DNA of 64,000 nt from Patescibacteria group bacterium (GTDB taxonomy: Bacteria; Patescibacteriota; Patescibacteriia; UBA1558; UBA10009). The position numbers were made by a program, and so were the translations under genes. Of the stretch, positions 392 to 53,121 are shown piece after piece. A model generated the notes under the pieces. It did not search any database, was not told where the DNA came from, and worked only from the letters and a program-made list of their open reading frames with translations. Position 1 is the stretch's first letter; each line of letters begins with the position of its first letter. The DNA lies in the NCBI GenBank assembly GCA_018818425.1, contig JAHISB010000018.1, positions 16,390 to 80,389 of the forward strand, written 5' to 3'.

Positions 392-1561
392 ATGAAAACA
401 ATTTTAAAAACCAACATCACTGTTAGAGATATTTGCGAAGGGTTCGTCTATAACGAACTGGAAGGCAAGGGTTTGTTTGGATTATCCGGCAAGCTCACTA
501 TTCAGCCGGAATACCAACGCAATTATATTTATGCGTCTGACGGCGGCAAAAGAGAAATGGCCGTCATTGAATCAATTCTCAAGGGCTATCCGATCGGCCT
601 GATTTATTTTAATAAAGTGAGTGACAAAAATTTGGAAGTTTTGGACGGGCAACAGCGAATCACCAGTCTTGGACGTTTTGTGACTGACAAATTTGCCATC
701 AAAGATGAAAACGGTATGGAACAATATTTTGGCGGTATGGCAAAAGACAAGAAAGCCAAGATTTTGGAAACTAAACTGCTCATTTACGAATGCGAGGGAA
801 CAGAAAGCCAAATAAAGGAGTGGTTTAAGACGATAAATATTGCCGGAGTTCCGCTCGTCCCCCAAGAATTGTTAAATGCGATTTACTCTGGACAATTCGT
901 GACACTCGGCAAGGAGGAGTTTAGTAATAGCCAAAATGCAAATATTCAAAAATGGAGCGCGTACATAAAAGGAAGTGCAAACCGACAGGCTTTTTTTGAG
1001 AGGGCTCTGGACTGGGTAAGCAAAGGAAATATTGATGATTACATGAGTATTCATCGCCATGACAAAAATATCAATGAGTTAAAAAAATATTTCAACAGCG
1101 TGATCGATTGGATTTCTAGTGTGTTTACCGACGTAGAAAGCGAAATGTGCGGACTTGAGTGGGGCCGACTGTATGAGCAGTATCATAAGAAAGCCTATGA
1201 CCCCAAGAAAGTGTCAGCCGAAGTGCACAAGCTCTATGGTGATTCGTATATCAAAAACCGCAAAGGTATTTTTGAGTTTATTCTAGGTGGTTCAGTAGAC
1301 ACTAAACTGCTGGAGGTTCGCGTCTTTGACGAGGCAACCAAAAAATCAGTTTACACAATACAGACAGAAACTGCCAAAACCAAAGGCAAATCAAATTGTC
1401 CGCTTTGTGCTATCGGGCACGATGCCAATAAGGAGAAAATCTGGAGTTTGAGCGAAATGGACGCTGATCATGTTGCGGCTTGGAGTAAAGGTGGCGCGAC
1501 TGCGGCCAAAAACTGCCAAATGCTTTGCAAAACACATAATCGAGCAAAAGGAAATCGGTAA
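392..1561 (+). CDS. DUF262 (ParB/GmrSD-like nuclease-NTPase domain) fused to a C-terminal HNH endonuclease
   Basis: The N-terminal half has the DUF262 hallmarks ([20 protein letters not shown]). The C-terminus has an HNH-like Cys/His/Asn cluster (CPLC..H..DHV..W..GG....[10 protein letters not shown]). Confidence 0.6.
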
Positions 1562-1930
1562 AAAGTGAAGAGTTTTCGGTCGGGGCAATTCACCCCTTTT
1601 GTTCCCCTCTTGCCCCCCTCCCTCAAACAGAATAAGGAGTTTTGGATTTTGGGCATTCACTCCTAACCCCTCTGCCCAAAATCCAAAACAGAAAAAGAAA
1701 TTTGAAAATTTTTTAAAACAACCGACTATCGTCGGAAAAAGAAAAGGAATACATCAGCTAACAACGAGTATCCGGTTACGGCTTTTTACAAAAGCCTCCA
1801 CCCAAATTTTTCCTCCGTTCCGCTCCAGAAAAACTTCAGATACTCGAAACGTTATATGCTGTTCAAAATTGCTCCTAATCGTCGCAACTTCGGATCAGCA
1901 AGGAACGTTAGATAAAATAAATAAAAATAA

Positions 1931-4705: not shown

Positions 4706-4848
4706 CTTGATTATTAGACTATTTGAGTATTTGAATATTAGAATATTTGATTATCTAAATATTAAATTATTAGAATAATGGTAATAAACTAGATAATCAA
4801 ATATTCCACCGGTCAAATAATCTAATAATCTATGAATCTAATAATCTA

Positions 4849-5346
4849 ATGTTTCTAACGGTCCACGCCGCATCAGGAATTTTTATCGGCAGCCAGGTTT
4901 CTGCCCCTTGGCTGGCTTTTATTTTGGGTTTTGTATCCCACTGGCTTTTGGACTTTATACCGCACGGCGATGAAAAAGTGATTGACCGCTCAAAATTTTC
5001 CGAAAGCCGGCTAAAAAAAATGCTTTTTTATGTGGCTGCCGCAGATACCTTGGGTATTATTATTCTTTTTTACTTTCTTATCTCAACAGAAACCATTGTC
5101 TTGACTTCAGGCATTCTTTGGGGCATGCTGGGAGCAGTGGCTCCGGATTATTTATGGGGTCTCCATAAAATTACCCGCATCAGGGTCTTAAAGCCCCTGC
5201 ATAAAATTCACAACTGGTTTCATCTTAAGCTGACTAATCCCCGATACCCCCGATTAAATCGGGGACGGGGACTGCCTTTCAAGCTTGGCAGTTTAATCCA
5301 GCTGGCCGCTTTTATTGCTTTTTTTCTCTTGATTATTTACTTATAA
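4849..5346 (+). CDS. hypothetical polytopic membrane protein carrying an in-frame palindromic mini-element insertion
   Basis: Hydrophobic helices throughout. The segment 5225..5280 encodes NPRYPRLNRGRG and contains the perfect palindrome ccccgattaaatcgggg. Confidence 0.45.
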   Translation: MFLTVHAASGIFIGSQVSAPWLAFILGFVSHWLLDFIPHGDEKVIDRSKFSESRLKKMLFYVAAADTLGIIILFYFLISTETIVLTSGILWGMLGAVAPDYLWGLHKITRIRVLKPLHKIHNWFHLKLTNPRYPRLNRGRGLPFKLGSLIQLAAFIAFFLLIIYL

Positions 5347-6865: not shown

Positions 6866-7111
6866 ATGAAAGTCGAATACATTTCATCCAAAGAACAAAT
6901 GCTGATTGCCGAAAATTTGTATAATATTACCGATTCTATAGAAGCGGCTAAACGATTAGAAGAAGAATGCGGTATCAAAATTACATACGGCAAATCAGTT
7001 GAGCTTAGGGACTTTGCCCGCAAGCTGGATAAAACCAAGTTCTTTAATTGGGAAATTGAAAAAGCTATCGAAAAACATAGCGGGCATAAAATTCGTTTAC
7101 GCGATTTATAG
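6866..7111 (+). CDS. small hypothetical protein (81 aa, charged and helical)
   Basis: ORF only. It converges on and overlaps the 3' end of the truB fusion gene by about 47 nt. Weak RBS. Confidence 0.25.
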   Translation: MKVEYISSKEQMLIAENLYNITDSIEAAKRLEEECGIKITYGKSVELRDFARKLDKTKFFNWEIEKAIEKHSGHKIRLRDL

Positions 7112-8405
7112 CTTCCAGCGGCTTAATCAAATATTTAGAATAATTATCTTTTGTAAGCTGATCCAACCGAACCGCCTCATTAATATTAAAATCCCCGATC
7201 GCGGTTCTTTTTAGTTCTTCAAGAATTGCCCCGGTACCCAACTTTTGACCAATGTCATGCGCCAGCGTTCTGATATATGTTCCGGTTGAACAAACGATTC
7301 TAATTTCAAAATTTGGGATTTGGGATTTGGGATTTGGGATTTGTTTGTTTCTTGCTCCGCCTTGAGCTTGTCGAAAGGTGGGTTGTATCTTGTATCTTAA
7401 TAATTCAATCTTATATATTTCAATCTCCGATGGTTTCCGAGCAATGGTTTTACCCTGACGAGCAATCTCATATAATTTTTTTCCATCGACCTTCTTGGCC
7501 GAAAACATCGGCGGCAACTGCTGCTGTTTACCAATGAACGATTTTAAAATGTTTTGGATTTTGGATTTTGATATTTGAGAATTATTTAGTCCCCGATTTA
7601 TTCGGGGATGGAATTTAGGATTTACCTCTCGGCCATGAGCTCGAGGCCGAATGGGAATTTTACCCGTCCTATCATAAGTATCCGACGTAACTCCCAAAGT
7701 AATGGCCGCTTCGTAAATTTTTGACAGCACATTAAACACTCCTGCAATTTTAGTTGCCTGTCCTATAGCGCAAATCAAAAGCCCGGTGGCAAACGGATCG
7801 AGCGTGCCGGTATGGCCGATTTGTTTGATGCCGGTGATGGAACGAAGCTTGGCCACAACATCGTGCGAAGTCCAATCCATGGGCTTATTAATTAATAAAA
7901 ATCCTGCTCGCCTCGATTCGGCGAAGCGGGCCTGCTCATCCTCTAATGCTTTCCTAATGCTTTTACCCTTGCAGACATCTTCTTTAAACGGTTTAAGTCT
8001 CTCTATTTTAAAATGTAAATCGGAGTTAACCGCTAAATCATGCAAGCCCTTAACATAGTTCTGCTGATCATAGCCCATGCCAATAACATCGGGTTTTTCT
8101 TGTTTAATGATTTTATAAGGATCGTCCAGATCGCCTAAAACAACCTTCCAATCCCCCGGTCTTTTGGTCTTTGATAAAACATCCTTTAATTGATTCAATC
8201 TTTTATTTTCATCAAAGTAAGGATTCCTGCCTTTCATTTTTTTTACATTTTCGTCTCTGGCAATTATAACAACTAAAAAATTATCTGACCCTAAACCGGA
8301 GCGTAGCGACTGGTTTAGGGCACCCAGCTCTTTAGCTTGTTCAATTAAATTGATATGTCCGGGATGGATTATATCAAAAGTTCCCGCAACTAGTACTTTA
8401 GTCAT
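7065..8405 (-). CDS. truB: fusion protein: N-terminal cytidylyl/adenylyltransferase-like domain (HxGH) + C-terminal tRNA pseudouridine(55) synthase TruB
   Basis: The N-terminus GTFDIIHPGHINLIEQAKELG is a nucleotidyltransferase HxGH motif. The TruB catalytic motifs lie further on (GHTGTLDPFATGLL, KIYEAAITLG, QLPPMFSAKKVDGKKLYE). Two in-frame repeat inserts at 7312..7380 and 7552..7660. Confidence 0.8.
   Translation of the reverse strand: MTKVLVAGTFDIIHPGHINLIEQAKELGALNQSLRSGLGSDNFLVVIIARDENVKKMKGRNPYFDENKRLNQLKDVLSKTKRPGDWKVVLGDLDDPYKIIKQEKPDVIGMGYDQQNYVKGLHDLAVNSDLHFKIERLKPFKEDVCKGKSIRKALEDEQARFAESRRAGFLLINKPMDWTSHDVVAKLRSITGIKQIGHTGTLDPFATGLLICAIGQATKIAGVFNVLSKIYEAAITLGVTSDTYDRTGKIPIRPRAHGREVNPKFHPRINRGLNNSQISKSKIQNILKSFIGKQQQLPPMFSAKKVDGKKLYEIARQGKTIARKPSEIEIYKIELLRYKIQPTFRQAQGGARNKQIPNPKSQIPNFEIRIVCSTGTYIRTLAHDIGQKLGTGAILEELKRTAIGDFNINEAVRLDQLTKDNYSKYLIKPLEAINRVNEFYARYVFR
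7312..7380. repeat. (TTTGGGA)4 heptamer array + mini-element half, in frame inside truB
   Basis: atttgggatttgggatttgggatttgggatttgtttgtttcttgctcc... Confidence 0.8.
7552..7660. repeat. (TTTTGGA)3 + palindromic mini-element (tccccgatttattcgggga), in frame inside truB
   Basis: Homologous to the uvrB insert and to the intergenic copy at 34558..34614. Confidence 0.8.
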
Positions 8406-8503: not shown

Positions 8504-9085
8504 GTGAAAACAATCGTTCTTTTCACTTTAGCGCTCTGCCTGCTGCTAAGCGGTTGCAACCGCATCGAGCCGCCGGTTGTTCGGGCGGAAAAACAGTTCT
8601 GCCAGCTGGAAAATCAGTTCTGGCTTAAGGCAATCGATAGCGCCACCCAACTAGCCTATAACTGGGTGACAATCGATACCTTGAAAAGTGGGTTTTTTAT
8701 CCCTTCCAACTGCATCAAACAAATGAGCGCAATTTTCACTGACACCTTGCAGGGAGACTCAGTGCAAATCAATGCCTACCGGCTAGCCCAACTAACTTCA
8801 GATGAATACTGCATTATAATTTTGGAATTAGTCCGTCGGTCAACAGATTGGCATCGGACGGTGCGCTGGCCAATGGATACAACCTGGGTAGAATTTACCC
8901 CTAATCTGCCAGATACGATTAGCTTGGGAGTACATAAAATTGCTCATCAGCAATACTGGTACGCCATTACCATCGGCGCGACCAGCGGTCCGGCTTTTGT
9001 CCGCTCCGGTTTCGTCAAAATGCTGTTGGAGAAGATGCGTCTAGATCTTTATCCGCCAACTGCGGCGTCAAAAAATCCAAAATAA
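8504..9085 (+). CDS. lipoprotein (GTG start; lipobox LLLSGC)
   Basis: Signal peptide MKTIVLFTLALCLLLSGC followed by a hydrophilic body. A GGAGGA RBS lies 9 nt upstream. Confidence 0.55.
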   Translation: MKTIVLFTLALCLLLSGCNRIEPPVVRAEKQFCQLENQFWLKAIDSATQLAYNWVTIDTLKSGFFIPSNCIKQMSAIFTDTLQGDSVQINAYRLAQLTSDEYCIIILELVRRSTDWHRTVRWPMDTTWVEFTPNLPDTISLGVHKIAHQQYWYAITIGATSGPAFVRSGFVKMLLEKMRLDLYPPTAASKNPK

Positions 9086-9117
9086 TATGCGAGATAAACT
9101 GAAAAACAGACTGGACA

Positions 9118-11286
9118 CTAAAGTTCAGTCTTTTTATTTCTTAATTTTTTAAAATCAGCAATTTGGTCTCTTAATTCCGCTGCTTTTTCAAACTCTAAAT
9201 TACTCGCGGCCATAGCCATCTGATTCTCCAAGTCCTCAATAAGATGTTTAAGCTCGTCTTTGGGAATATCTTTGAGTTTATCGGTCCTTGGTCTTTGGTC
9301 TTTGGTTCTCTCCCGCACATTCTCAACCTTAACATCTTTCTTAATTGATTGAGGTTCAACGTTGTGCCTGCGATTATATTTCTCCTGAATTTTCCGGCGG
9401 CGGTTGACTTCTTTAATGGCCCTTTTCATCGAACCGGTTTGTTTATCAGCGTACATTATAATTCTACCTTCAATATGCCTGGCAGCTCTGCCCATAGTTT
9501 GGACTAATGATGTTTCGCTACGAAGAAATCCTTCTTTATCAGCGTCTAAAATAGCAATCAGCGAGACCTCGGGCAAATCAAGGCCTTCGCGAAGTAAGTT
9601 GATGCCCACCAAAACATCGTATTTTCCAAGCCGAAGATCCCTGATAATTTCAATCCTTTCTAAAGTGTGAATTTCGGAATGCAAATACTGAACTTTAAGG
9701 CCTTTTTCCTGCAGATATTCTGTAAGATCTTCGGCTAAACGTTTAGTTAAAGTGGTAACTAAAACTCTTTGCTTTTTTTTGACTGTAGCTGTGATCTCTT
9801 TAATTAAATCTGCCACTTGATTCTTGGTTTTTTTGACTTCCACGCTTGGTTCCAAAAGTCCGGTCGGACGAATGAGTTGTTGGGCGACTGCGGAATTTGA
9901 GTCTTCAATCTTCAGTTTTAAATCTTCGTAATCCACCACCTCTTTTGTAAGCGCCCCGGCCTTCATTTTTTTAGTTTTAATTCCCGACATGCGATACTCG
10001 TAAGCAGCCGGCGTGGCCGAAACAAAGACTGCTTTGCTTATATGATTTTCAAACTCCTTGAATTTTAACGGCCGGTTATCTAAAGCTGATGGCAAACGAA
10101 AGCCAAAATCGACCAGGGTCTGTTTTCTGGCCCGGTCGCCATTATACATAGCGTTAAGTTGAGGCACCGTCATATGCGATTCATCAATGAACAGCAGAAA
10201 ATCATCAGGATAATAATCAATCAATGTCGCCGGCTGTTCCCCCGGTTCCCGGTTGGTCAGGTACCTTGAATAGTTTTCTATGCCGTTGCAGTAGCCGGTT
10301 TGTTCTATCATTTCTAAATCGTACTTGGTTCTTTCTTCGATTCGTTGGGCTTCTAGTAGTTTATTTTGATTCTTAAGTTGAGTGGCTCTTTCCTTCATTT
10401 CTTTTTTGATGGATTCCAGCGATTGTTTTAATCTTTCCTCGGGCGTGACAAAATGCTTGGCCGGAAAAACTTCAATGTTTTGGATTTTGGATTTTGCTCG
10501 CCCTGAGCGAAGCCGAAGGGGAATTTGAGATTTGTTTGTTTCTTGTCCTCGATTAAATCGGGGATTGGAACTTGGTACTTGTTGACCTGTGATTAGGTCA
10601 ATGATAGATAACTTTTCAATAAGATCGCCATTAAATTCAACCCTTATTACCTCATTCTTCTCTTCAATTGGAAAAATATCCAAAACATCGCCTTTGACTC
10701 TAAAATTGCCGCGGTAAAAATCATAGTCATTTCTTTTGTACTGAAGATCGGTTAAGTGACGGAACAACTTATCGCGCTTAATTTTTTGTCCGACAGCCAA
10801 CTTGATTCTCATATCCTTATAATCTGCCGGACTGCCTAAACCATAAATGCACGAAACTGATGCCACAATCAATACATCCTGACGGGTTAATAAAGCGTTG
10901 GTTGAAGCGTGGCGCAGTCTGTCGATTTCCTCGTTAACATCAGTTTCCTTTTCTATATAAGTGCCGGACTGGGGAATGTAAGCTTCGGGCTGATAGTAAT
11001 CGTAATAGCTGACAAAATAATGCACCGCATTTTCCGGAAAAAATTCCTTGAATTCTGATGCTAATTGAGCGGCCAATGTTTTGTTATGAGAGATAACCAG
11101 GGTTGGTTTTTGGATTTTCTCAATAACACACGCTACAGTGTAAGTCTTGCCACTGCCAGTGACTCCCAACAAAGTTTGATGTTTATAGCCCCTTTTTATT
11201 CCGCTGGCTAATTTATCAATAGCTTGCGGCTGGTCGCCAGTCGGCTTGAACTTGGATTTTAACTTAAATTTTGGCATAATTAACAA
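9118..11286 (-). CDS. uvrB: excinuclease ABC subunit B, with an in-frame mini-element insertion of about 110 nt
   Basis: Walker A GVTGSGKT, helicase motifs, the UvrB/UvrC interaction domain at the C-terminus (ELRDQIADFKK). The insert at 10477..10585 encodes NPRFNRGQETNKSQIPLRLRSGRAKSKIQN. Confidence 0.95.
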   Translation of the reverse strand: MLIMPKFKLKSKFKPTGDQPQAIDKLASGIKRGYKHQTLLGVTGSGKTYTVACVIEKIQKPTLVISHNKTLAAQLASEFKEFFPENAVHYFVSYYDYYQPEAYIPQSGTYIEKETDVNEEIDRLRHASTNALLTRQDVLIVASVSCIYGLGSPADYKDMRIKLAVGQKIKRDKLFRHLTDLQYKRNDYDFYRGNFRVKGDVLDIFPIEEKNEVIRVEFNGDLIEKLSIIDLITGQQVPSSNPRFNRGQETNKSQIPLRLRSGRAKSKIQNIEVFPAKHFVTPEERLKQSLESIKKEMKERATQLKNQNKLLEAQRIEERTKYDLEMIEQTGYCNGIENYSRYLTNREPGEQPATLIDYYPDDFLLFIDESHMTVPQLNAMYNGDRARKQTLVDFGFRLPSALDNRPLKFKEFENHISKAVFVSATPAAYEYRMSGIKTKKMKAGALTKEVVDYEDLKLKIEDSNSAVAQQLIRPTGLLEPSVEVKKTKNQVADLIKEITATVKKKQRVLVTTLTKRLAEDLTEYLQEKGLKVQYLHSEIHTLERIEIIRDLRLGKYDVLVGINLLREGLDLPEVSLIAILDADKEGFLRSETSLVQTMGRAARHIEGRIIMYADKQTGSMKRAIKEVNRRRKIQEKYNRRHNVEPQSIKKDVKVENVRERTKDQRPRTDKLKDIPKDELKHLIEDLENQMAMAASNLEFEKAAELRDQIADFKKLRNKKTEL
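10477..10585. repeat. (TTTTGGA)3 + palindromic mini-element (cctcgattaaatcgggg), in frame inside uvrB
   Basis: tttgtttgtttcttgtcctcgattaaatcggggattggaacttggtacttg aligns with 34558..34614. Confidence 0.8.
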
Positions 11287-11514: not shown

Positions 11515-11590
11515 AGCATGGGAGCATGGGAGCAAGTGTTCTAATGTTCTAATGTTCTAATGTTCCAGTGTTCCAATGCTCTAATGAAAA
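11515..11590. repeat. (ATGTTCTAATGTTC)-type tandem array upstream of ruvA
   Basis: gagcatgggagcatgggagcaagtgttctaatgttctaatgttctaatgttccagtgttccaatgctctaatg. Confidence 0.7.
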
Positions 11591-12272: not shown

Positions 12273-13298
12273 ATGGAAATAACTCTTTTAAATAAGCCAC
12301 GATTTGATGAATTTGCCGGCAATCAAAAATACAGTCAATTTTTACAGTCTTGGGACTGGGGCGATTTCCAAAAAAACGTCGGCCATAGAGTCTGGCGACT
12401 GGGCGTTGCTTTAGATAATCAGATTATTGCCTCGGCCCAAATTATTGAGCATCTTTTGCCTTTTAATAAAAGTTATCTTTACTGCCCTCGCGGTCCGGTA
12501 ATAGCAGAAAATTTATCTGACAAACAAAAACTCACGGCCTTAAAACTGATTCTAAGCAAAGCCCGCGACATTGCCATTTCAACTCCCCAAACCGAAGAAA
12601 TCTTCTTCCGCCTAGAGCCAACCCATCGTCTACAACCTACAACCTACCCACTACAACCTACACCCTACAACCTAAGAAAAACAAAGCCCATCCAGCCCGC
12701 CGATACTCTGATTTTAGACCTAACTTTGCCGAAAGAACAATTGCTGACAAACATGCGCCAAAAAACCAGATACAACATCCGCCTGGCCGAAAAACATGGA
12801 GTAACAATTAAAGAAGAGAGTGGCTTTTCCAAAGTCTGGCCATTTTTCGAACAAACTTCTAAAAGAGATAAATTCGGCCTTCATCCCAAAAAATACTATC
12901 AAAAAATGGTTGAGGATTCCGATTTAATAAGGATGTGGGCCGCAGATTATAAAGGAAAAATAGTTGCCGCTAATATTGTCAGTTATTTCGGCAATACCGC
13001 CACTTATGTTCACGGCGCTTCTGACTATCAGCAACGTTCAATGATGGCGCCGTTTCTTTTACAATGGGAAGTGATTAAAAACGCCCAGGAGCAGGGCTAT
13101 AAATATTATGACTTTCATGGAATTGCGCCAAACCATAACAAAAATCACCCTTGGCACGGCATCACTAGATTTAAAAAAGGCTTTGGCGGCCAAGTAATTC
13201 ATTATCCCGGAACTTTTGATTTTATTTATCAGCCATTGAGTTATAATATATATAAGGCCTTGCGAAAATTAAACCTTCTTATCAGAAAAATTTATTAA
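12273..13298 (+). CDS. FemAB-family aminoacyltransferase (peptidoglycan interpeptide bridge formation), with an in-frame (ACAACCTAC)n repeat insert
   Basis: SWDWGDFQ...LYCPRGPV and the C-terminal GFGG region resemble the FemABX family. The repeat at 12630..12675 encodes LQPTTYPLQPTPYNL. Confidence 0.65.
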   Translation: MEITLLNKPRFDEFAGNQKYSQFLQSWDWGDFQKNVGHRVWRLGVALDNQIIASAQIIEHLLPFNKSYLYCPRGPVIAENLSDKQKLTALKLILSKARDIAISTPQTEEIFFRLEPTHRLQPTTYPLQPTPYNLRKTKPIQPADTLILDLTLPKEQLLTNMRQKTRYNIRLAEKHGVTIKEESGFSKVWPFFEQTSKRDKFGLHPKKYYQKMVEDSDLIRMWAADYKGKIVAANIVSYFGNTATYVHGASDYQQRSMMAPFLLQWEVIKNAQEQGYKYYDFHGIAPNHNKNHPWHGITRFKKGFGGQVIHYPGTFDFIYQPLSYNIYKALRKLNLLIRKIY

Positions 13299-14763: not shown

Positions 14764-16080
14764 ATGAAAACTTTTGTAAAGAAACTTCTACCTCCTTTTA
14801 TTCTGGGCTGGTACCACCAAGTACTGGCATTTTTAGCTATGGTCATTTATGGTTTTCCTTCTAATAAATTGATTGTTATTGGCGTAACCGGCACCAACGG
14901 CAAATCAACGGTCGTCAATTTAATCGGCGAAATTTTAAAAATTTCGGGCCATCAAGTTGCCTGGACCGCCACCACCAACTTTTTTCTTGACGGCCAGGAG
15001 CGGCTTAACGACCAAAAAATGACCATGCCGGGCAGATTCAAAACTCAAAAATTCTTAGCAGATAGCGTAAGGGCCGGCTGTAAATATGCCATAATCGAAA
15101 CTTCATCGGAGGGCATTAAACAATACCGGCATTGGGGCATTAATTATGATCTGGCGGTTTTTACTAACCTGACTCCCGAACATATCGAAGCCCACGGCAG
15201 TTTTGAAAACTATAAAAAAGCCAAAGGCAGACTCTTTAAGCATCTGACAAAATTCCCAAAGAAAAAAATCAACAATCAGCTGATTGATAAAACGATTATA
15301 GTAAATACTGACGATCAATATGCCGATTACTTTTTAAATTTTCCGGCTGACAAAAAATTGGCTTTCTCAATTAAAAAAAAATCCGACTTTAGGGCAACCA
15401 GCATTAAGCTTGATTCTAACGGCACTTCTTTCACCCTACAACCTACCCCCTACAACCTACCCCCTACAACCTACAAAACTAATTTACTGGGGAAAGTTAA
15501 CATCTACAACTGCCTCTCGGCTATTGCCGTTGCCAAAGCTCTTGGAATCGACAGCGATAAAATCCAGCAAGCCTTACTAAAATATAAAGGCATGCCCGGA
15601 CGTTTTGAATTTATTGATAAGGGACAAAAATTCAAAGTGATGATTGACTATGCGCCCGAGCCCGAGTCAATGAAAAAATTGTATGAAACTTTGCAATTAT
15701 TTAAGTTTAATAAAATAATTCATGTTTTAGGTTCCTGCGGCGGCGGCCGAGATAAGTCCAGAAGACCTATTTTAGGAAAATTAGCCGCAGAAAACGCTGA
15801 CATTGTGATAGTCACTAACGAAGATCCTTACGACGAAGACCCGCAACAAATTATTGATCAAGTAGCGGCCGGCGCCGAAGCTAATGGTAAAATTCTTAAT
15901 CAAAACTTATTTAAAATATTGGATAGACGCGAAGCAATTAAAAAAGCTTTGTCATTGGCTAATGATAATGATTTAGTTTTGCTGACCGGCAAGGGTTGCG
16001 AGCAGCATATTTGCGTTACTCGCGGGAAGAAAATTAAGTGGGATGATCGAGAGGTTGTTAGAGGGTTGTTGAAAATATAA
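14764..16080 (+). CDS. Mur ligase family protein (MurE-like), with an N-terminal TM segment and an in-frame (ACAACCTAC)n repeat
   Basis: P-loop VIGVTGTNGKST, the Mur ligase middle and C-terminal motifs (TGKGCEQH...WDDRE). The repeat at 15433..15477 encodes LQPTPYNLPPTTY. Confidence 0.7.
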   Translation: MKTFVKKLLPPFILGWYHQVLAFLAMVIYGFPSNKLIVIGVTGTNGKSTVVNLIGEILKISGHQVAWTATTNFFLDGQERLNDQKMTMPGRFKTQKFLADSVRAGCKYAIIETSSEGIKQYRHWGINYDLAVFTNLTPEHIEAHGSFENYKKAKGRLFKHLTKFPKKKINNQLIDKTIIVNTDDQYADYFLNFPADKKLAFSIKKKSDFRATSIKLDSNGTSFTLQPTPYNLPPTTYKTNLLGKVNIYNCLSAIAVAKALGIDSDKIQQALLKYKGMPGRFEFIDKGQKFKVMIDYAPEPESMKKLYETLQLFKFNKIIHVLGSCGGGRDKSRRPILGKLAAENADIVIVTNEDPYDEDPQQIIDQVAAGAEANGKILNQNLFKILDRREAIKKALSLANDNDLVLLTGKGCEQHICVTRGKKIKWDDREVVRGLLKI

Positions 16081-23826: not shown

Positions 23827-23860
23827 TTTCTAGACTATTTGATTATAAGCGCCGTTGTCC

Positions 23861-23995
23861 GCGGATAACGCTGAGACGCGCTGACCATTAGCTGATATCC
23901 GCCGAGGCGCGCTGATACAAAATTTATCAGCGAATATCCGCCCGCTTCGACTCCGAAGCGAGGCGAGCGCGCCTCGGCGTGTCTTGGCGGTTATC
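23861..23995. repeat. 135-bp GC-rich structured repeat, copy A (direct repeat of 25462..25597)
   Basis: gcggataacgctgagacgcgctgaccattagctgatatccgccgaggcgcgctgatac...ggcggttatc. It differs from copy B at only a few positions. Confidence 0.85.
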
Positions 23996-25401: not shown

Positions 25402-25461
25402 ACTATAATTTTAGCATCTTTAGGTAAAACATTAAACTCTTTGTCTGAAACGCCGATGCAT

Positions 25462-25597
25462 GCGGATAACGCTGAGACGCGCTGACCATTAGCTGATATC
25501 CGCCGAGACGCGCTGATACAAAATTTATCAGCGAATATCCGCCCGCTTCGACGAGTAAAGCGAGGCGAGCGCGCCTCGGCGTGTCTTGGCGGTTATC
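25462..25597. repeat. 135-bp GC-rich structured repeat, copy B
   Basis: Near-identical to 23861..23995. It lies just upstream of the start of the gene at 24061..25401 on the minus strand. Confidence 0.85.
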
Positions 25598-27498: not shown

Positions 27499-27798
27499 TT
27501 AATTAAATACAACTTTTAATTCTTTACCAAAGGCCTTGGCTAATTTATCCAGCATTTCCACAGTAAAATTCTGCTGTCCTGTTTCCATTCTGGCAATATT
27601 ACTCTGCGTAGTGCCGATTTTTTTGGCAACTTCCGACTGGGTCATTCCCATTTTCTTGCGCAACCTAATTAGACTGAGAGAAATCTCTAGCTGTTTGCCG
27701 TAATAATCGAACAACTTTTTATATTCAGGATTTTTTAAGTCCTCCCTTAATATATCATCAAAATCCGTTAGCTTTATTTTTTTTGATTTAGAGATCAT
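27499..27798 (-). CDS. HTH XRE-family antitoxin (HigA-like)
   Basis: MTQSEVAKKIGTTQSNIARMETG helix-turn-helix. Overlaps the upstream toxin gene by 11 nt. Confidence 0.7.
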   Translation of the reverse strand: MISKSKKIKLTDFDDILREDLKNPEYKKLFDYYGKQLEISLSLIRLRKKMGMTQSEVAKKIGTTQSNIARMETGQQNFTVEMLDKLAKAFGKELKVVFN

Positions 27799-28159
27799 AT
27801 TTATGTAGATTGTTCATAAAGTCATAATAATTATTTAAAGCTTTTCTAATTTCTTTCCTTGGCGCCTTTTGGGATTTTTTAAAGAAGGCGTGTAATAAAA
27901 TTATATTTTTATTAATAAAAGAAAAATAAAATACTCTATGCCGGTTTCGCCCAAAATCAACTTTCAACTCTCGAATCTTGCCTGTTATATGCCTTGAAAG
28001 CGGTTCATCTAGATAGCCTTTACTTTCTTTTAAATACTCTAAATATTTTTCTATTTTTAACCTGTCTTTAATATTTATTTTTAATAGATAATCTAAAACC
28101 GGCTCTTTTTCGTTTCGGCTATTCTTATAGAATTTTACCTTATATTCACTATATATCAT
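27788..28159 (-). CDS. RelE/ParE-superfamily toxin of the HigB / phage Gp49-like type
   Basis: 123 aa. KESKGYLDEPLSRHITGKIRELKV...ILLHAFFKKSQKAPRKEI resembles Gp49/HigB. The toxin sits upstream of the antitoxin, as in higBA operons. Confidence 0.55.
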   Translation of the reverse strand: MIYSEYKVKFYKNSRNEKEPVLDYLLKINIKDRLKIEKYLEYLKESKGYLDEPLSRHITGKIRELKVDFGRNRHRVFYFSFINKNIILLHAFFKKSQKAPRKEIRKALNNYYDFMNNLHKYDL

Positions 28160-28320
28160 ATGTGATATGTTGTCAAATTAATAAAATAAAAAAGCCATTC
28201 CCGAGACTGGCTCGGTAAATGACCCTTTAGCCCTAAATCCATAGTGGTTCAGGGTTTAGCTGTATCTTATATAACCTGAAAATAATGTCAAATTAGAAAA
28301 GCCCCCCCCCTGTCTAAGAC

Positions 28321-28395
28321 GCTGATATGCGCGGATATGCGCTGACCATTAGCTGATGCCGACTCGCCTCGCTTCGACTCTGCAAAGCGAGGAGG
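28321..28395. repeat. partial degenerate copy of the 135-bp GC-rich repeat family
   Basis: Shares the 19-mer gcgctgaccattagctgat and the cgcttcgactc..aagcgagg block with the copies at 23861 and 25462. Confidence 0.6.
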
Positions 28396-30087: not shown

Positions 30088-30967
30088 TTGTAAGAATACC
30101 TCGCGTTGTTAGCACTTTTTAGGTATAGTGTTAACAATATGACTATACATAAATGGACTAAACTTACCCCCGTCAAAAGACGGGAAATAGCTGATAAATA
30201 CTTTAAACAAGACATCAGAATAGCAACCTTAGCCAGAGATTACCAAACAAGTAGAAATACTATCTACAATGTCATCAATCGGGCAAGGATGAATGATTTC
30301 AGTATTCATAAAAGCATCAATAAGCGTTACAGGTGTTTGGAGTACGGCCTCAAACGATTATCAAAGATTGAAGCCGCATTTGAGAAAAAGCTTAAAAACA
30401 AAGCCCAACGCTACAACAAGAGCTATCCCGGGGAAATGATGCATTCCGACAACACTCAACTGCCCATGCTCAAGGGAGAAACTACTCAAGACAAGCCGGA
30501 AAAGCTCTATGTGGCCATTGATGACTTTTCCAGAGAGCTGTACGCCACCATATTGCCGGATAAAACCCAGTTTTCCTCCGCAACGTTCTTACTGCAAGTG
30601 CTTGAGGAGTGCCCTTACACTATAGAAACATGGTACACTGATAATGGCACTGAATACAAAGGTAATCCCAAAGAACATGTTTTTATGCAACTGTGTCAGA
30701 AGCATGACATTAAACAGTCGTTTACTAGGGTAAAAACTCCAAAGACCAATGGCAAGGCCGAGCGGGTTATTAGGACTCTTTTCCAGATGTGGCATTCAAG
30801 GACCAAGTTTAAAAGTAACGTGCATCGAAAGCAAGAATTGATCAGATTTGTGAATTACTACAATACTGTTAAACCCCATAAAGGTATTGATAATCTTACT
30901 CCTTTTGAAAAATTAACTAACTATTTTTATCCTAAAGAACTGTGAACAACGCTGTTACTTCTTACAA
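30088..30967 (+). mobile_element. IS481-family-like insertion sequence with imperfect terminal inverted repeats of about 26 bp, flanked by a TTTAT(T) target-site duplication
   Basis: IRL TGTAAGAATACCTCGCGTTGTT pairs with the reverse complement of the IRR at 30941..30967, TGTAAGAAGTAACAGCGTTGTT. The flanking tttatt repeats at 30083..30088 and 30968..30973. One transposase ORF inside. Confidence 0.7.
30139..30945 (+). CDS. DDE transposase (N-terminal HTH + integrase core, IS481-like)
   Basis: HSDNTQLP...YVAIDDFSRELYA...WYTDNGTEY...KTNGKAERVIRT, which is the rve DDE core. Start taken at MTIHKW. Confidence 0.85.
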   Translation: MTIHKWTKLTPVKRREIADKYFKQDIRIATLARDYQTSRNTIYNVINRARMNDFSIHKSINKRYRCLEYGLKRLSKIEAAFEKKLKNKAQRYNKSYPGEMMHSDNTQLPMLKGETTQDKPEKLYVAIDDFSRELYATILPDKTQFSSATFLLQVLEECPYTIETWYTDNGTEYKGNPKEHVFMQLCQKHDIKQSFTRVKTPKTNGKAERVIRTLFQMWHSRTKFKSNVHRKQELIRFVNYYNTVKPHKGIDNLTPFEKLTNYFYPKEL

Positions 30968-30978: not shown

Positions 30979-31863
30979 CTAGCGGGAATGGGTAATGCCA
31001 ATTTTCCAAACATTTCTTTCTAAAAAGGCTTCGATTGTTTGCCGGCCGGCTTTATTTATTAGGTTTGAGTGTGAAAATTTATTATTTTTTGCGTAATCAA
31101 CAAGGGTCATAATTTCTTTATCTTCTAAATACGCCAATCGTTTATGATAGCTGTTAGTAAGCGCTCTTCCGACTATTTCTTCCATAATTAAAGTTCTGCC
31201 TTTTTTATCAAATTCTTTAAACGCTTCATAATATTTCTGCCTATCAATAAATTTTATATTTATAGGAACAAACCCTTCCCGTATTAATAAATAATTATTA
31301 ATAACGCGCCCAATGCGGCCGTTGCCGTCAACAAATGGATGAATATGTTCAAAAGTAAGATGTAATTTTGCTATACGATTGATAATATTTTCATGGCTAG
31401 CGGCATTATACTCGGTCAGCATTTTTTCTAAACGATACGCCACTTCTTTTGAATTGGGGGCAATGTAATTTCCGACTCTAACATATTCACCATTTTTTCT
31501 GAACCTGCCGGCAATATCATCACGAATATTTGAAATTAACATTTTGTGCAGTAATAAAATAACCTCAAGAGTGAGTTCTTGTTCCTTAGCTTTTTTACCT
31601 ATATATAACACAACTCGCGCCAAATTTTTTGCTTCAAAAAATTCTCGTTCAATAATAAATCTATCTAAGTCAATTTGTAAAAGTATTTTTTCGGTTTCTT
31701 CAAGAGTAAGAGTACTATTTTCTATAGCATTAGAGTTATATACTTGTTCGGCAACTTCGGCTTCCAAGATAAGCTTAATTAGCGCGTCCTTGCCTGTAGA
31801 CGCCTTATAGTATCTTTCCCGAAGAGAATCTATTTTATTGTAAACATTAAGTATTTTTACCAT
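30979..31863 (-). CDS. Fic family protein
   Basis: Fic motif HPFVDGNGRIGR. Confidence 0.85.
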   Translation of the reverse strand: MVKILNVYNKIDSLRERYYKASTGKDALIKLILEAEVAEQVYNSNAIENSTLTLEETEKILLQIDLDRFIIEREFFEAKNLARVVLYIGKKAKEQELTLEVILLLHKMLISNIRDDIAGRFRKNGEYVRVGNYIAPNSKEVAYRLEKMLTEYNAASHENIINRIAKLHLTFEHIHPFVDGNGRIGRVINNYLLIREGFVPINIKFIDRQKYYEAFKEFDKKGRTLIMEEIVGRALTNSYHKRLAYLEDKEIMTLVDYAKNNKFSHSNLINKAGRQTIEAFLERNVWKIGITHSR

Positions 31864-34480: not shown

Positions 34481-34557
34481 AAAACTCCAAATTAAAAGAA
34501 CTAAGGAACCAAACAATAACCAAAATCAAAAATAAAAATTTCTTATTTGAATTTTTT

Positions 34558-34614
34558 AATTTGTTTGATTCTTTTCCCTCGATTAAATCGAGGGTCGGTT
34601 CTTGGTAATTTTTA
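34558..34614. repeat. intergenic copy of the palindromic mini-element (ccctcgattaaatcgaggg)
   Basis: aatttgtttgattcttttccctcgattaaatcgagggtcggttcttggtaattttt. Confidence 0.75.
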
Positions 34615-35345
34615 CGACTATGTCCAGCTTTATCCACAAAAAACTTTCTTCAGACAAAAGTGTGGCGGAAATAATTAAAGAAGAGAGGCAGAAAAGAAAT
34701 TTAAGCTTATCGGAGGTTTCTTTAAAAACCCAAATTGCTTTAGATTATTTAAATAAACTGGAGCAGGGCCGTTATCATCAGCTGCCGGGCGATATTTATA
34801 TTAAGCAGTTTGTAAAAAAACTGGCTAAATATTTTAATTTTTCGGAAAAAAATCTTTTGGCCATTTATCAGAAAGAGAAGATCAACCAGTTAAACATTTT
34901 CCAGTCAACTCCCCTAAAGTTATCTAAAAGGCCTCAAAAAAATCTGTTATCGTTTTTAACCCCTCGGTTAATCAGACTTTCCCTGGTCAGCTTAATTATT
35001 TTAGGCCTCTTTGGTTATCTGGCTCTGGAGATTACCAATATCTTTACCCCGCCCTTGCTGGAAATTGAATCGCCCGCCGCGCAGACTATTACGGTCAAGC
35101 CGGCTATTACCATTAAAGGCAAAACCATGCCCGAGGCCCTGATTTTAATCAACCAGCAGGAAATTTTAACCAAGCCCGACGGCAGTTTTTCCCAGGATGT
35201 TAATTTAAATATGGGGCTCAATCTTTTTGAAATTTCGGCCTCCAAAAAGCATAGCAAAGAAAATATTATCACTATTTCCATTCTCCGCCAGCCGGCCACC
35301 ACCTCCGACTTAAATATGTTTGACAGATCTGTTTCTTTTCAATAA
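34602..35345 (+). CDS. HTH-domain membrane protein, RodZ-like
   Basis: N-terminal XRE-type HTH (LSLSEVSLKTQIALDYLNKLEQG), one TM helix, and a C-terminal extracytoplasmic domain. The start may lie at the downstream Met, because the 5' end overlaps a mini-element copy. Confidence 0.55.
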   Translation: MVIFTTMSSFIHKKLSSDKSVAEIIKEERQKRNLSLSEVSLKTQIALDYLNKLEQGRYHQLPGDIYIKQFVKKLAKYFNFSEKNLLAIYQKEKINQLNIFQSTPLKLSKRPQKNLLSFLTPRLIRLSLVSLIILGLFGYLALEITNIFTPPLLEIESPAAQTITVKPAITIKGKTMPEALILINQQEILTKPDGSFSQDVNLNMGLNLFEISASKKHSKENIITISILRQPATTSDLNMFDRSVSFQ

Positions 35346-36814: not shown

Positions 36815-36902
36815 ACTATAACATTAGAACATTAGAGCATAGGAGTAATTATTTATGTTCTAATGTTCTCATGCTCCCATGTTCTAATGTTCTCATGTTC
36901 TT
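36815..36902. repeat. the same ATGTTCTAATGTTC-type array in inverted pairing upstream of the flippase gene
   Basis: aacattagaacattagagcatagg...tatgttctaatgttctcatgctcccatgttctaatgttctcatgttc. Confidence 0.7.
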
Positions 36903-38315
36903 ATGACTTTGACTAAAACCATCGCTAAAAACACTCTCTGGCAAATAATCGGTAAAATTATCGGCACTATTTTGGGAGTTGTTACCATTGCTCTGCTGAC
37001 CCGTTATTTGGGCAAAGAGGGCTTTGGCCATTACACCACGGCTTTGGCCTTTATGCAGTTCTTTGGCGTGCTGGTTGATATGGGGCTTTATTTAATTTGT
37101 TTAAGGGAGATTTCAGCCCGGCCGGAAAAAGAAAGCTATATTACCAGCAACATTTTTACCTTGCGCTTTTTTTCGGCTCTGATTTTTTTGGGCGGCGGTA
37201 CTCTGCTGATTTTTGTTTTCCCCTACCCGCCGGTGGTTAAGTGGTCGGCTGCCATTGTTTCCGGCTCATTTTTATTTATGTCTTTGGTCCAAACTCTGAC
37301 TACGGTTTTTCAAAAACATCTTAAAATGGGACAGGTGGCGCTGGCCGAAGTAGTTGGACGGACCGGTTTTTTAATTGTGATCTTCCTCTTTATTTTCTAT
37401 AAAGGCAACTTGCCGGCTTTGATGTTGGGCAATGTGGCCAATGCTATTATTTATTTTGTCATTCTGTGGGTCCTAATTAAAAAGTATGTAAATATAAAAT
37501 GGTCATTCGACTTTGTCTATTGGAAAACAGTAATCGCCAAGGCCTGGCCCATTGCCCTGGGCGTGGTTTTCAACCTGGTTTATTTTAGGGCCGATACCAT
37601 TATTCTTTCACTCTATAAACCGGCCGGCGATGTTGGCCTTTACGGCGCGCCTTATAAAATTCTGGAGATAATCACCACTTTCCCCCATATGTTTATGGGC
37701 TTGGTGATGCCCATTTTAACGGCTGCCTGGATCAGCCGAAATATGGAAAAATTCAAAAGCATTATGCAAAAAACTTTTGATTTTTTTATTATTTTGATTA
37801 TGCCGATGGTTCTGGGAACAATTCCTTTGGCTGATAAAATTATGGTTTTAATCTCCGGCAACGAATTTGCTCCGTCAGGAAAAGTTCTGCCGGCTCTGAT
37901 GCTGGCTACCGGCATGATATTTTTAGGCACGCTGTTTACCTACACTTTGGTGATTCTGGAAAAACAAAAAACCATGCTGAAATATTTTGCCCTGGCCGCC
38001 GTGCTGGCCTTAATCGGCTACTTTATTTTTATTCCCAAATATTCCTACTTTGGCGCGGCCTGGGTCACTGTGATTATTGAGGGCTTTATCACTTTGACTG
38101 CCCTGATGCTGGCTTATAAATTTTCTAAAATTAAGCTCACTGGTAAAACTTTTATAAAAAGCTTGATTGCTTCGGTAATTATGACGGGCGCGTTATATCT
38201 GCTTTTAGATTTAAATATTATCCTGTTGCTGATTATTAGCATCTTGATTTATGGAGCGGTGATGATTATAATTAAAGGGGTTGACAAAAAGATAATTAGT
38301 GATATTATAAGGTGA
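36903..38315 (+). CDS. polysaccharide biosynthesis protein / Wzx-like flippase (MOP superfamily)
   Basis: 470 aa with about 12-14 TM helices. The N-terminus TIAKNTLWQIIGKIIGTILGVVTIALLTRYLG is typical of the Wzx/PST family. Confidence 0.7.
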   Translation: MTLTKTIAKNTLWQIIGKIIGTILGVVTIALLTRYLGKEGFGHYTTALAFMQFFGVLVDMGLYLICLREISARPEKESYITSNIFTLRFFSALIFLGGGTLLIFVFPYPPVVKWSAAIVSGSFLFMSLVQTLTTVFQKHLKMGQVALAEVVGRTGFLIVIFLFIFYKGNLPALMLGNVANAIIYFVILWVLIKKYVNIKWSFDFVYWKTVIAKAWPIALGVVFNLVYFRADTIILSLYKPAGDVGLYGAPYKILEIITTFPHMFMGLVMPILTAAWISRNMEKFKSIMQKTFDFFIILIMPMVLGTIPLADKIMVLISGNEFAPSGKVLPALMLATGMIFLGTLFTYTLVILEKQKTMLKYFALAAVLALIGYFIFIPKYSYFGAAWVTVIIEGFITLTALMLAYKFSKIKLTGKTFIKSLIASVIMTGALYLLLDLNIILLLIISILIYGAVMIIIKGVDKKIISDIIR

Positions 38316-38977: not shown

Positions 38978-40402
38978 ATGCTTTACTTATTAATCATTAT
39001 TTTTTACCTGTTATTTACCTGGGTATCGCATCGAGATATCCGCTGGGGCATTTATTTAACTCTGTTATTTTTGCCTTCTTATCTGATTCGTTTTCAGATT
39101 TTAGGAATGCCGGCGACCCTTTTAGAAGGCATGATCTGGCTGCTTTTTATTGTCTGGCTTTTAAAACTTCGCCAAGAAAAAGGCCTGACCCTAAATCCAG
39201 TAAAATGGGTAAAGAACATCCTTAATCCTCAATCCTTAATCCTCAAAGAACAAAATCCAATTCCTAGATTTTTCAGATTACCGATGATTTTATTCCTCGC
39301 CGCCGCCACTATTTCGGCCTTTGTCTCCCCCCAGCTTCAGGCCGCTTTAGGCATCTGGAAAGCTTACTTTGTTGAAGCGCTGATGTTCTTTATTATTTTT
39401 ATCTATAACATCAGAACATCAGCACAGGTAAAACAGGTTATCAGGATTTTAGGAGTTTTGACGATTGTTATAGGGCTATTTGCCATTTACCAAAAACTGA
39501 CCGGGGATTTAATTCCCCACCCCTACTGGGCAGCCGAAGCCACCAGAAGAGTAACCACTTTCTTTGGCTATCCCAATGCCAATGCGTTATTGATAGCGCC
39601 GGTTTTGATGTTGACTATTGGCAATTTGTTGACTGATAAAAAATTTAAACTGATTGTCATTAATTTACTGGTTCTAATTCTTGGAATCTTAACGATTCTC
39701 TGGGCCGGCTCAACCGGCGCTCTGCTCGGCATTGCCGCCGGCCTAATCTGCTTCCTGCTCTTCTGCAAAAAAACCAGAATTATAACCATAGCGGTTTTAG
39801 CCATAGTTCTGATTGTCAGCTTCACTCAACTGCCGGCCGCAGACTACCTAAAACAAACAGCCGGCTCGCTAGTTTACACCGATCTGCCCCTGGTGCCTTC
39901 CGACGTCCAGATCCGCTACCAGCAATGGAAAGAAACTTTAACCATGCTCAAAGACACGCCGATTTTTGGCGCAGGTCTTAACGGTTATCAAACTTTAATG
40001 ATTCCCTATCATCAATTTTGGCATATTGAAATTTTTCTTTATCCTCATAATTTCTTTTTAAATTTTTGGTCAGAAACTGGACTATTGGGATTAATCTCAA
40101 TTATATGGATTTTAGTATCCTTTTTTATTATAAGTTTTAAGTTTTCAGTTTTTAATCTTAAATCAATAAAAAACTTAAAACTGAAGACTGAAAACTATAA
40201 TCAGAGTTTCACTTACCAAATATTGACTATTACAACGTCTTGCGCTATGATTACTCTCCTTGTTCACGGCCTGGTTGATGTTCCTTATTTTAAAAACGAT
40301 CTGGCGATATTGTTTTGGATAATAATCGGAATAATAATAATTTTATACAACGAACGGAGGCGTGCGAGAGTGGTTGAATCGGACGGTCCCGAAAACCGTT
40401 AG
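38978..40402 (+). CDS. O-antigen ligase / Wzy_C-family membrane protein; its 3' end reads 48 nt into tRNA-Ser
   Basis: Polytopic. The periplasmic loop with FGAGLNGYQ...H...FW resembles O-antigen ligase family proteins. An in-frame (ATCCTTAATCCTCA)2 repeat sits at 39219..39248. Confidence 0.6.
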   Translation: MLYLLIIIFYLLFTWVSHRDIRWGIYLTLLFLPSYLIRFQILGMPATLLEGMIWLLFIVWLLKLRQEKGLTLNPVKWVKNILNPQSLILKEQNPIPRFFRLPMILFLAAATISAFVSPQLQAALGIWKAYFVEALMFFIIFIYNIRTSAQVKQVIRILGVLTIVIGLFAIYQKLTGDLIPHPYWAAEATRRVTTFFGYPNANALLIAPVLMLTIGNLLTDKKFKLIVINLLVLILGILTILWAGSTGALLGIAAGLICFLLFCKKTRIITIAVLAIVLIVSFTQLPAADYLKQTAGSLVYTDLPLVPSDVQIRYQQWKETLTMLKDTPIFGAGLNGYQTLMIPYHQFWHIEIFLYPHNFFLNFWSETGLLGLISIIWILVSFFIISFKFSVFNLKSIKNLKLKTENYNQSFTYQILTITTSCAMITLLVHGLVDVPYFKNDLAILFWIIIGIIIILYNERRRARVVESDGPENR

Positions 40403-49064: not shown

Positions 49065-49091
49065 ATAATCAGCTTTTAACTTTTTAACTAT

Positions 49092-50688: not shown

Positions 50689-50692
50689 AACT

Positions 50693-53120: not shown

Positions 53121-53121
53121 T

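Follow-up and report, generated by a model that had tools for sequence, protein, structure and literature searches.

Repetitive extragenic palindromic (REP) sequences, bacterial interspersed mosaic elements (BIMEs) and the pneumococcal BOX elements are extragenic almost by definition, REPs being tied to REP-associated tyrosine transposases (RAYTs), and the short tandemly repeated repetitive (STRR) sequences of cyanobacteria are genome-wide heptanucleotide arrays, mainly non-coding and built from unit sequences other than those described below. The Rickettsia palindromic elements (RPEs) are dispersed palindromic repeats found both between genes and, in frame, inside unrelated conserved genes, and in-frame insertion also has a precedent among MITEs (miniature transposable elements with inverted repeats), which can fuse with host open reading frames (ORFs) (PMC10969869). 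Here we describe a set of short palindrome-bearing repeats in a 64-kb stretch of patescibacterial DNA (hereafter, the window), where they form in-frame segments of uvrB, truB and a small membrane-protein gene and recur in intergenic DNA. We consider it probable that these segments represent a family of mosaic repeats specific to this lineage, its members being short, non-autonomous and of a selfish kind, comparable to RPEs or to MITEs and BIMEs.

About 71 kb of this genome were covered, i.e. the window and 7 kb more of the same contig, which is 104.4 kb long, derives from a metagenome assembly (ENA ERZ27247128, k141_561449) and is filed at NCBI as “Patescibacteria group bacterium”. The GC content of the window is 40%, and the nearest named relatives are Candidatus Komeilibacteria. 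The source is a patescibacterium of groundwater type with a small genome. ORF 9118-11286 on the minus strand codes for a complete UvrB (E 2e-256 against solved UvrB), ORF 7065-8405, also on the minus strand, for an intact cytidylyltransferase-TruB fusion, and ORF 4849-5346 on the plus strand for an intact small membrane protein; all three are annotated as complete proteins by NCBI, and the protein clusters of the window proteins comprise this contig only, as single consensus sequences. The label “essential genes”, given to the hosts in the preliminary description, is not established for uvrB and truB, both of which can be deleted from E. coli with the cells remaining viable.

The repeats are recognized most readily by a 17-nt palindrome, H1 (CCYCGATTWAATCGRGG), which has four matches in the window with no more than two mismatches, as opposed to 0.06 expected from shuffled sequences: at 5248-5264 in the membrane gene, 7591-7607 in truB (a degenerate variant, CCCCGATTTATTCGGGG), 10547-10563 in uvrB and 34577-34593 in an intergenic spacer. 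Its 11-nt core matches the window 15 times with up to one mismatch (2.0 expected), and repeat finding returned the same four H1 copies as family D14, the uvrB and intergenic copies being moreover paired over 60 nt as D19. H1 as a module is a perfect or near-perfect palindrome of 17-19 nt (CCYCGATTAAATCGRGG); the other modules are tandem arrays of T/G-rich heptamers, (TTTTGGA)n and (TTTGGGA)n; motif M3 (TTTGTTTGNTTCTT), likewise T/G-rich and akin to TTGGTTCTT; and a GC-rich block M2 (CCCTTCGGCTTCGCTCAGGGC), which translates as LRLRSG. Nucleotides 10474-10496 of uvrB are identical to 7548-7570 of truB at 23 of 23 positions (block AATGTTTTGGATTTTGGATTTTG), 10523-10545 of uvrB agree with 7332-7354 of truB at 22 of 23 (block ATTTG(A/G)GATTTGTTTGTTTCTTG), and 10530-10560 of uvrB match the intergenic 34559-34590 at 29 of 32, spanning M3 and H1. 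The heptamer arrays are 100% perfect, with (ATTTGGG)x4.7 at 7311-7343 and (TTTTGGA)x2.7 at both 7552-7570 and 10478-10496. Palindrome counts, shared blocks and perfect arrays thus bear out the repeat positions and sequence facts reported earlier, and translation confirms the peptides PRFNRG, PRINRG and PRLNRG.

The copies are mosaics of these modules in differing orders and not one fixed element (Table 1). Read on the plus strand, the uvrB insert consists of the (TTTTGGA)x2.7 array, M2 at 10497-10522 (here GCTCGCCCTGAGCGAAGCCGAAGGGG), M3 at 10531-10544 (TTTGTTTGTTTCTT), H1 and a TTGGAACTTGG motif. In truB, variable region 1 is composed of (TTTTGGA)2.7, a linker, the degenerate palindrome H1', another linker and an M2-like hairpin, and region 2 of (ATTTGGG)x4.7 followed by M3 (7340-7353) and a module resembling M2 (about 7355-7380). 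The intergenic copy begins with an A/C-rich arm (AAGGAACCAAAC...) followed by an AT-rich loop, a T/G-rich arm (M3), H1 and GGTTCTTGG, and its A/C and T/G arms pair to give an imperfect hairpin of about 120 nt. The repeats noticed earlier are real, but they do not make up one element with one core and lack a common architecture. Of the two element copies proposed for truB, the one at 7312-7380 contains no palindrome, only the heptamer array, M3 and M2, while the palindrome at 7591 is present in degenerate form. The earlier list of inserts was also incomplete, having missed those at 8283-8321 and 7905-7928 of truB as well as in-frame arrays of other genes. The insert at 8283-8321 forms a hairpin with a 9-bp stem, CCCTAAACC...GGTTTAGGG, and is absent from 21 of 21 aligned relatives with an N-terminal cytidylyltransferase domain. 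The architecture of an N-terminal cytidylyltransferase-like domain followed by TruB (PF01467 + PF01509) is itself kept in the closest relatives of the window TruB, and some more distant homologues have the extra domain at the C terminus instead.

The syntenic relative L120 shares with the window the gene order rpoC-rpoB, Mur ligase, FemAB, ruvA, uvrB, truB, S20, holA, membrane gene and polA, with protein identities of 56-77% in the insert-bearing genes, and lacks every one of the segments in uvrB, truB (four segments) and the membrane protein, leaving clean codon-level gaps with conserved flanks; the gap at truB region 2 is 63 nt in the codon alignment, and the membrane-protein orthologue can be aligned on either side of the insert. 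The closest UvrB (P0002, 78% identity) and TruB (P0122, 64%) homologues are also without the segments, and in a protein alignment with 26 homologues the uvrB segment was absent or different. Alignments to solved UvrB chains are interrupted between query residues 235 and 270, around residues 236-269, and those to solved TruB chains break at about 252-277 and 334-366. Being absent from L120 and from the closest homologues, with conserved flanks, the segments appear to have been inserted rather than inherited from an ancestral region. Frameshifts or stop codons were not found in the host genes, whose ORFs are open and can be aligned to their orthologues to the left and right of every insert. These comparisons support the proposal that a dispersed palindromic repeat has inserted in frame into conserved genes, and the reading frame is indeed preserved in every genic case; neither the same segments in relatives nor pseudogenes, which had been named as evidence to the contrary, were encountered. 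In a predicted AlphaFold 2 model of UvrB, residues 240-268 are coil with a predicted local distance difference test score (pLDDT) below 50; the model is of low quality (mean pLDDT 63.6) and indicates no more than that the insert is unstructured. Another insertion of about 31 residues relative to solved structures, at UvrB amino acids 433-463 (9898-9990), is kept across Patescibacteria homologues and absent from those outside the candidate phyla radiation (CPR), for which reason we regard it as an old lineage-specific insertion outside the repeat family.

An artefact of assembly, or a chimera formed at short repeats, is suggested by the metagenomic source and the k141 contig, but has practically no chance of being the explanation: the shared blocks do not exceed 23 nt, far under k = 141, each insert is flanked on both sides by in-frame sequence collinear with orthologues, the gene order of L120 matches, and the same proteins are present in the ENA and NCBI records (possibly one assembly). 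It is also very improbable that the inserts are intervening sequences, removed from the mRNA in the manner of introns or from the protein in the manner of inteins so that the mature proteins are canonical. Introns are known in rRNA and tRNA genes of CPR genomes (PMC10221324), and the CPR UvrB homologue P0034 (1231 amino acids) carries true intein/LAGLIDADG domains. In contrast, the mini-inserts described here, with 24-102 nt (8-34 codons), are far too short for group I or group II introns or for inteins; Rfam revealed no intron families in the window, and the inserts contain neither intein motifs nor Pfam matches. Their length in multiples of three and their stop-free sense frame, moreover, answer the needs of translation and not those of introns.

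We also looked for copies beyond the window. BLAST of the elements against phages and plasmids gave no match. An nhmmer profile was made from the window intergenic copy and two other intergenic versions of about 120 nt, L054 and L074 (both Ga0180007), so that these match it at E 1e-30 to 1e-35 by construction; as neither L054 nor L074 resembles the window in protein-coding sequence, their copies are non-orthologous. The independent matches are weaker, partial copies: the uvrB insert (E 6e-8), L110 (E 2e-7), a related contig where the same modules are found in frame inside leuS, the leucyl-tRNA synthetase (LeuRS) gene, as EQPTRFDREARRASNKQIPNPTLDLIGGQTNSKLQNSNF, and L123 (E 8e-8), a partial copy without H1 at 702-775, lying beyond the window on the same contig. 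The M2 block of the window uvrB insert is identical over 21 nt to one in the uvrB of L121 (a relative, GCA_964520395.1), which however lies about 400 codons further along the gene and is read as ITLRLRSGQE; unrelated contigs, too, have M2-like DNA of the LRLRSGQA type, in non-coding sequence. In L121, an apparent diversity-generating retroelement (RVT_1 reverse transcriptase and bAvd, 8583-9971) is found directly upstream of uvrB.

These matches bear on an explanation without any mobility, in which the segments would be ancestral hypervariable regions, evolving where they stand through slippage, duplication and template switching at quasi-palindromes, and the similarity between sites would be low-complexity convergence. 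Convergence cannot yield a 17-nt palindrome four times at an expectation of 0.06, nor 23/23-nt and 22/23-nt identities between different genes, nor an identical 21-nt M2 at different positions of uvrB in two species; in addition, an element of about 120 nt is common to non-orthologous loci, and its profile finds uvrB, L110 and L123 at E 6e-8 to 2e-7. In favor of change in place, the insertion sites are variable in essentially all relatives. They are hot spots with different inserts: at the uvrB and truB sites nearly every relative has a peptide of its own, heptamer-like or GC-hairpin-like, or else lacks one, and homologues differ in length where the UvrB and TruB inserts sit. The C-terminal variable region of uvrB, around its second heptamer array, likewise has other inserts in relatives, including the M2 copy of L121. 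Tandem arrays with periods of 7, 8 and 14 nt number 15, 14 and 8 in the window, versus 1.9, 2.5 and 0.7 in Markov-1 simulations, and many arrays of this 6- to 11-fold excess are inside genes, the second uvrB array among them. One and the same codon position of the FemAB-like gene is occupied by (CTACAAC)n in the window, by (CGAAATT)n in L120 and by an 8-nt array in L121; at the Mur-ligase site, the window has (CCCTACAACCTACC)3, L121 has (GTCATCR)x4 and L120 nothing. Such different short arrays at one position fit array turnover, as does the strong genomic excess, and the truB heptamer block, for its part, overlaps native sequence. We consider this explanation unlikely for the segments as a whole; it is probably true for the tandem arrays, and not for H1, M2 and M3. 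Different arrays at one codon position, together with the array excess, point to two processes operating side by side, namely array turnover in place and copying of hairpin modules.

The excess of 7- and 8-nt arrays inside genes may provide slippage-prone tracts for phase variation. As regards arrays outside genes, related octamer arrays, (TGTTCTAA)x6 at 11537-11586 and (ATGTTCTC)x6 at 36855-36905, lie directly upstream of ruvA and of a polysaccharide-synthesis gene, respectively, and further 8-nt arrays at 4707-4771 and 4816-4850 lie between polA and the membrane gene; these may be regulatory or promoter-proximal.

The palindrome taken alone proved to be a poor guide to family membership. We rejected H1 as a universal hairpin: the 17-mer occurs at more than 116 metagenome loci, in very different contigs and often at the apex of longer hairpins, while in viral contigs control palindromes of matched composition turn up just as often (14 loci for H1; 24, 9 and 0 for controls), and the three genome matches of the 17-mer belong to unrelated phyla. 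Since controls are as frequent and the genome matches are so scattered, non-CPR matches of the 17-mer were treated as unrelated hairpins; perfect GC-clamped palindromes occupy a small sequence space. The 17-mer being uninformative by itself, only loci with common flanking modules (L054, L074, L110 and perhaps L056) were assigned to the same family. The palindrome scan also picked up an unrelated metagenome contig, L011, with a group I intron beside a tRNA gene (1553-1779), and a repeat of about 90 nt (gtattctgggg...cctgatttgtagcaggcctgactggtCCCCGATTAAATCGGGGattggtatggtgtccctggaattc) that has the same apex and occurs in L018, L025, L034, L039, L052, L075 and about 40 other metagenome loci, often twice per contig at a distance of 0.8-2.6 kb. 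In L025 and L034 this repeat is located among small unrelated genes, which we take, judging by eye, to include a GNAT acetyltransferase and a radical SAM enzyme. It has no matching Rfam family and gives the impression of an element of sediment bacteria, of the cassette-array or REP type; appearing unrelated, and lying between small cassette-like genes, it was not retained as part of the H1 finding.

We then asked what the repeats look like as folded DNA and as peptides. DNA folding was better than that of shuffled sequences for the membrane-gene insert (z-score -4.2), truB region 1 (-3.05) and the truB N-terminal insert at 8283-8321 (-2.6), but not for the truB linker insert at 7905-7928 (-0.57); the hairpin upstream of polA at 1639-1690 folds at -17.8 kcal/mol with a z-score of -5.8. 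The genic hairpins are partly degenerate, that of uvrB having a mismatch and that of truB an altered apex. H1 is read as PR(F/I/L)NRG in all three window genes and as (P/L)DLIGG in L074 and L110, and is kept paired by one compensatory change, T-A to C-G, among the aligned window, L054 and L074 copies. The DNA rather than the peptide would be under selection; since H1 is read in different frames in different hosts, the encoded peptide is probably not selected. On the sense strand, A+C make up 62-74% of the three large uvrB and truB inserts and 59% of the membrane-gene insert; the uvrB and truB region-2 inserts each have two open sense frames out of three, the frame in use is the only open one in truB region 1, and antisense frames mostly contain stops. 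Such A/C-rich composition and orientation would make the repeats easily tolerated as hydrophilic coil, and the preservation of frame in every case would reflect a survivorship filter; indeed, it is expected from survivorship alone.

A functional role in cis was considered as well, with hairpins acting in mRNA stability, processing, attenuation or protein binding, and with the non-triplet arrays of genes serving as phase-variation switches. It would agree with the compensatory change that keeps the palindrome, with the equal spacing between the end of the intergenic copy and the ATG of the neighboring gene in the window and in L054, the two genes being unrelated, and with perfect 7/14-nt arrays in apparently envelope-related genes (FemAB-like, Mur ligase and a large membrane protein). 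Nevertheless, we regard such a role as quite unlikely: at gathering thresholds no Rfam family was detected at the repeats of the window and 18 loci, the intergenic copy has no promoter- or terminator-like consensus match, copies differ in module order and orientation, genic hairpins are degenerate or fold no better than shuffles, and arrays are also present in uvrB and truB, where on/off switching is implausible; nor was any length polymorphism of the arrays seen in the single consensus sequences. A more speculative proposal, which we find improbable, treats conserved-protein positions in UvrB, TruB, LeuRS, FemAB and Mur ligase as landing pads, actively rewritten by 7/8-nt arrays and hairpin cassettes for diversification or phase switching, with envelope arrays as the contingency switches of an episymbiont.

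Under the reading that we favor, a family of mosaic repeats, pieces of the module repertoire would be copied to new sites, coding DNA included, and the genic copies that survive would be those which fell into insertion-tolerant variable regions, with a length divisible by three and with the A/C-rich, low-stop strand as sense. Translation of the survivors would give hydrophilic extensions, probably disordered and with much K, N, Q, S, P and R, including, if retained, peptides such as NPRFNRGQETNK. Copying may have relied on a trans-acting transposase inserting H1 into heptamer or TTGGTTCTT arrays, or on template switching during replication or gene conversion between nearby sites, while local slippage probably drives the turnover of tandem arrays. 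The selfish or neutral status of the copies, the strand and frame filter and the translation of inserts are what we infer from the sequence. The pairing arms of the intergenic copy, AAGAACCAA...TTGGTTCTT, are conserved in three loci, mostly as invariant pairs, whereas genic copies have no recognizable ends. H1 is flanked by direct repeats, of TTGGTTCTT (9/9 in L074) or, in truB and L110, of other sequences, and L123 has two adjacent TTGGTTCTT copies without H1.

Several observations weigh against this reading. The direct repeats around H1 could represent a target duplication, or else just the periodic array that hosts H1. Genic copies show no unambiguous terminal inverted repeats or target-site duplications, and the search for a transposase linked to the repeats gave none: the sole candidate in the window, of the rve/IS481-like type, has no matching ends. 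Three of the four H1 copies are within 5.3 kb, which fits local copying better than free transposition, and the truB heptamer array at 7552-7570 encodes SKSKIQN, the SKSKIQNI part of the “element” aligning with conserved native TruB. This clustering, and the fact that the 23-mer common to uvrB and truB covers the KIQNI native in TruB relatives, are hints of gene conversion or of template switching on a local scale. The polarity of insertion rests on relatives with 56-78% protein identity. Finally, the hairpins of the uvrB and truB region-2 inserts are not superior to those of shuffled sequences (z-scores -1.45 and -0.68), although degenerate and weakly folding genic hairpins are expected of decaying selfish copies and argue against a conserved RNA function.

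Comparison with described systems shows that the repeats behave much as RPEs do, in that a palindromic repeat able to form a hairpin, here H1 of 17-19 nt, adds a peptide to a gene whose ORF is kept and whose orthologues lack the segment. Copies are found in frame in uvrB, truB, the membrane gene and leuS of L110, and between genes in the window, L054, L074 and L123. However, RPEs form discrete families of about 100-150 bp, and here we find no such unit with a conserved peptide, but 24-120-nt composites in which 17-40-nt hairpins and 7-nt arrays are joined in no fixed order; the palindrome, moreover, is read in two frames or more, and the insertion sites are shared hot spots. The RPE interpretation is thus upheld for behavior and not for size, architecture and use of reading frames, and common descent with RPEs is unlikely because the host is a Patescibacteria metagenome-assembled genome and not a member of the alphaproteobacterial Rickettsiales. 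With MITEs, such as ERIC, Correia, Nezha, QMITE1 and those of Anabaena, the repeats have in common small size and a non-autonomous, AT-rich nature; in the intergenic copy the A/C and T/G arms pair, and a 9-nt direct repeat, perfect in L074, surrounds H1. They differ in being fragments and mosaics, in the lack of clear ends in genic copies and in having no parent insertion sequence with matching ends in 71 kb. The mosaic of short imperfect palindromes and linker motifs in variable number and order recalls REP/BIME and pneumococcal BOX elements, but several copies are intragenic, and the 24 window proteins scanned include no RAYT or other HUH/Y1 transposase. Period-7 arrays, about 8-fold over-represented here, resemble the 7-nt arrays of STRRs, from which they differ by lying in many cases in frame inside genes and in combination with hairpin modules. 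Non-triplet tandem repeats within ORFs, including apparently envelope-related genes, also recall contingency loci, as slippage by one unit would shift the frame, but they are situated mid-gene, are found in housekeeping genes too, and many are short or imperfect.

In the searchable literature we found no published description of in-frame repeats in the CPR or of LRSGQA-type peptides. A Patescibacteria genome would harbor in-frame selfish repeats of the Rickettsia type, in a smaller and more modular form, as a second, independent system for the spread of repeats and their absorption into proteins, which suggests that repeat invasion of protein regions has repeatedly been tolerated by small genomes. 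Lineage-specific insertions and low-complexity peptides of the CPR (LRLRSGQ-like, KSQIPN-like) may be repeat-derived and not adaptive, and can distort alignments, trees and domain annotation.

Table 1. Inserts, repeat copies, tandem arrays and nearby mobile or defence-type genes in the window
Feature	Position	Strand	Remarks
uvrB composite insert, in frame	10480..10581	-	amino acids 236-269, peptide QVPSSNPRFNRGQETNKSQIPLRLRSGRAKSKIQ
uvrB second heptamer array	9283..9306	-	GGTCTTT x3.4, C-terminal variable region
truB variable region 1, in-frame insert	7575..7652	-	amino acids ~252-277, ...IRPRAHGREVNPKFHPRINRGLNNSQ; H1' 7591-7607, M2-like hairpin ~7626-7660
truB variable region 2, in-frame insert	7308..7406	-	amino acids ~334-366, ...FRQAQGGARNKQIPNPKSQIPN; no H1
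truB cytidylyltransferase-domain insert, 39 nt, in frame	8283..8321	-	ALNQSLRSGLGSD; window-specific
truB cytidylyltransferase/TruB linker insert, 24 nt, in frame	7905..7928	-	RFAESRRA, GC-rich; window-specific
Membrane-gene insert, 30-36 nt, in frame	5236..5271	+	NPRYPRLNRG(RG); H1 5248-5264 alone, inside two-tier hairpin
Intergenic full-length element, ~120 nt	34503..34620		between ftsK and RodZ-like gene, ends at ATG of next gene
Inverted heptamer-block pair	1639..1690		GTTTTGGATTTTGGG ... CCCAAAATCCAAAAC; spacer upstream of polA, 17-bp-stem hairpin
FemAB-like gene array, 7/14-nt, in frame	12624..12674	+	CTACAAC/CTACCCA, peptide LQPTTYPLQPTPYNL
Mur-ligase gene array, perfect 14-nt x2.9, in frame	15434..15476	+	CCCTACAACCTACC, peptide TLQPTPYNLPPTTYK
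Large membrane protein array, perfect 14-nt x2.1, in frame	39218..39246	+	ATCCTTAATCCTCA; host presumably an O-antigen ligase
rve (IS481/IS3-like) transposase gene	30106-30945		near repeats
Gp49-like toxin gene	27788-28159		near repeats
Fic/DOC protein gene	30979-31863		near repeats
Fic/DOC protein gene	40569-41627		near repeats
GmrSD-HNH endonuclease gene	392-1561		near repeats

The truB linker insert resembles, over a 16-nt piece (7906-7921), part of a second GC-rich repeat family, B, of about 75-145 nt, which is present in three intergenic spacers (23847-23995, 25448-25595 and 28320-28395). Family B has no Rfam match and is strongly structured (-42.8 kcal/mol, z-score -6.3), with nested hairpins GCTGATA...TATCAGC and CGCTTCG-ACTC-CGAAGCG. 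Elsewhere in the window, 49000-55000 contains an array of about ten paralogous genes resembling pilins of type IV secretion systems, with a common conserved 66-nt block, and a tandem duplication with a period of 1616 nt at 59574-62839 gives rise to two paralogous proteins of about 540 amino acids, to which no function was assigned.

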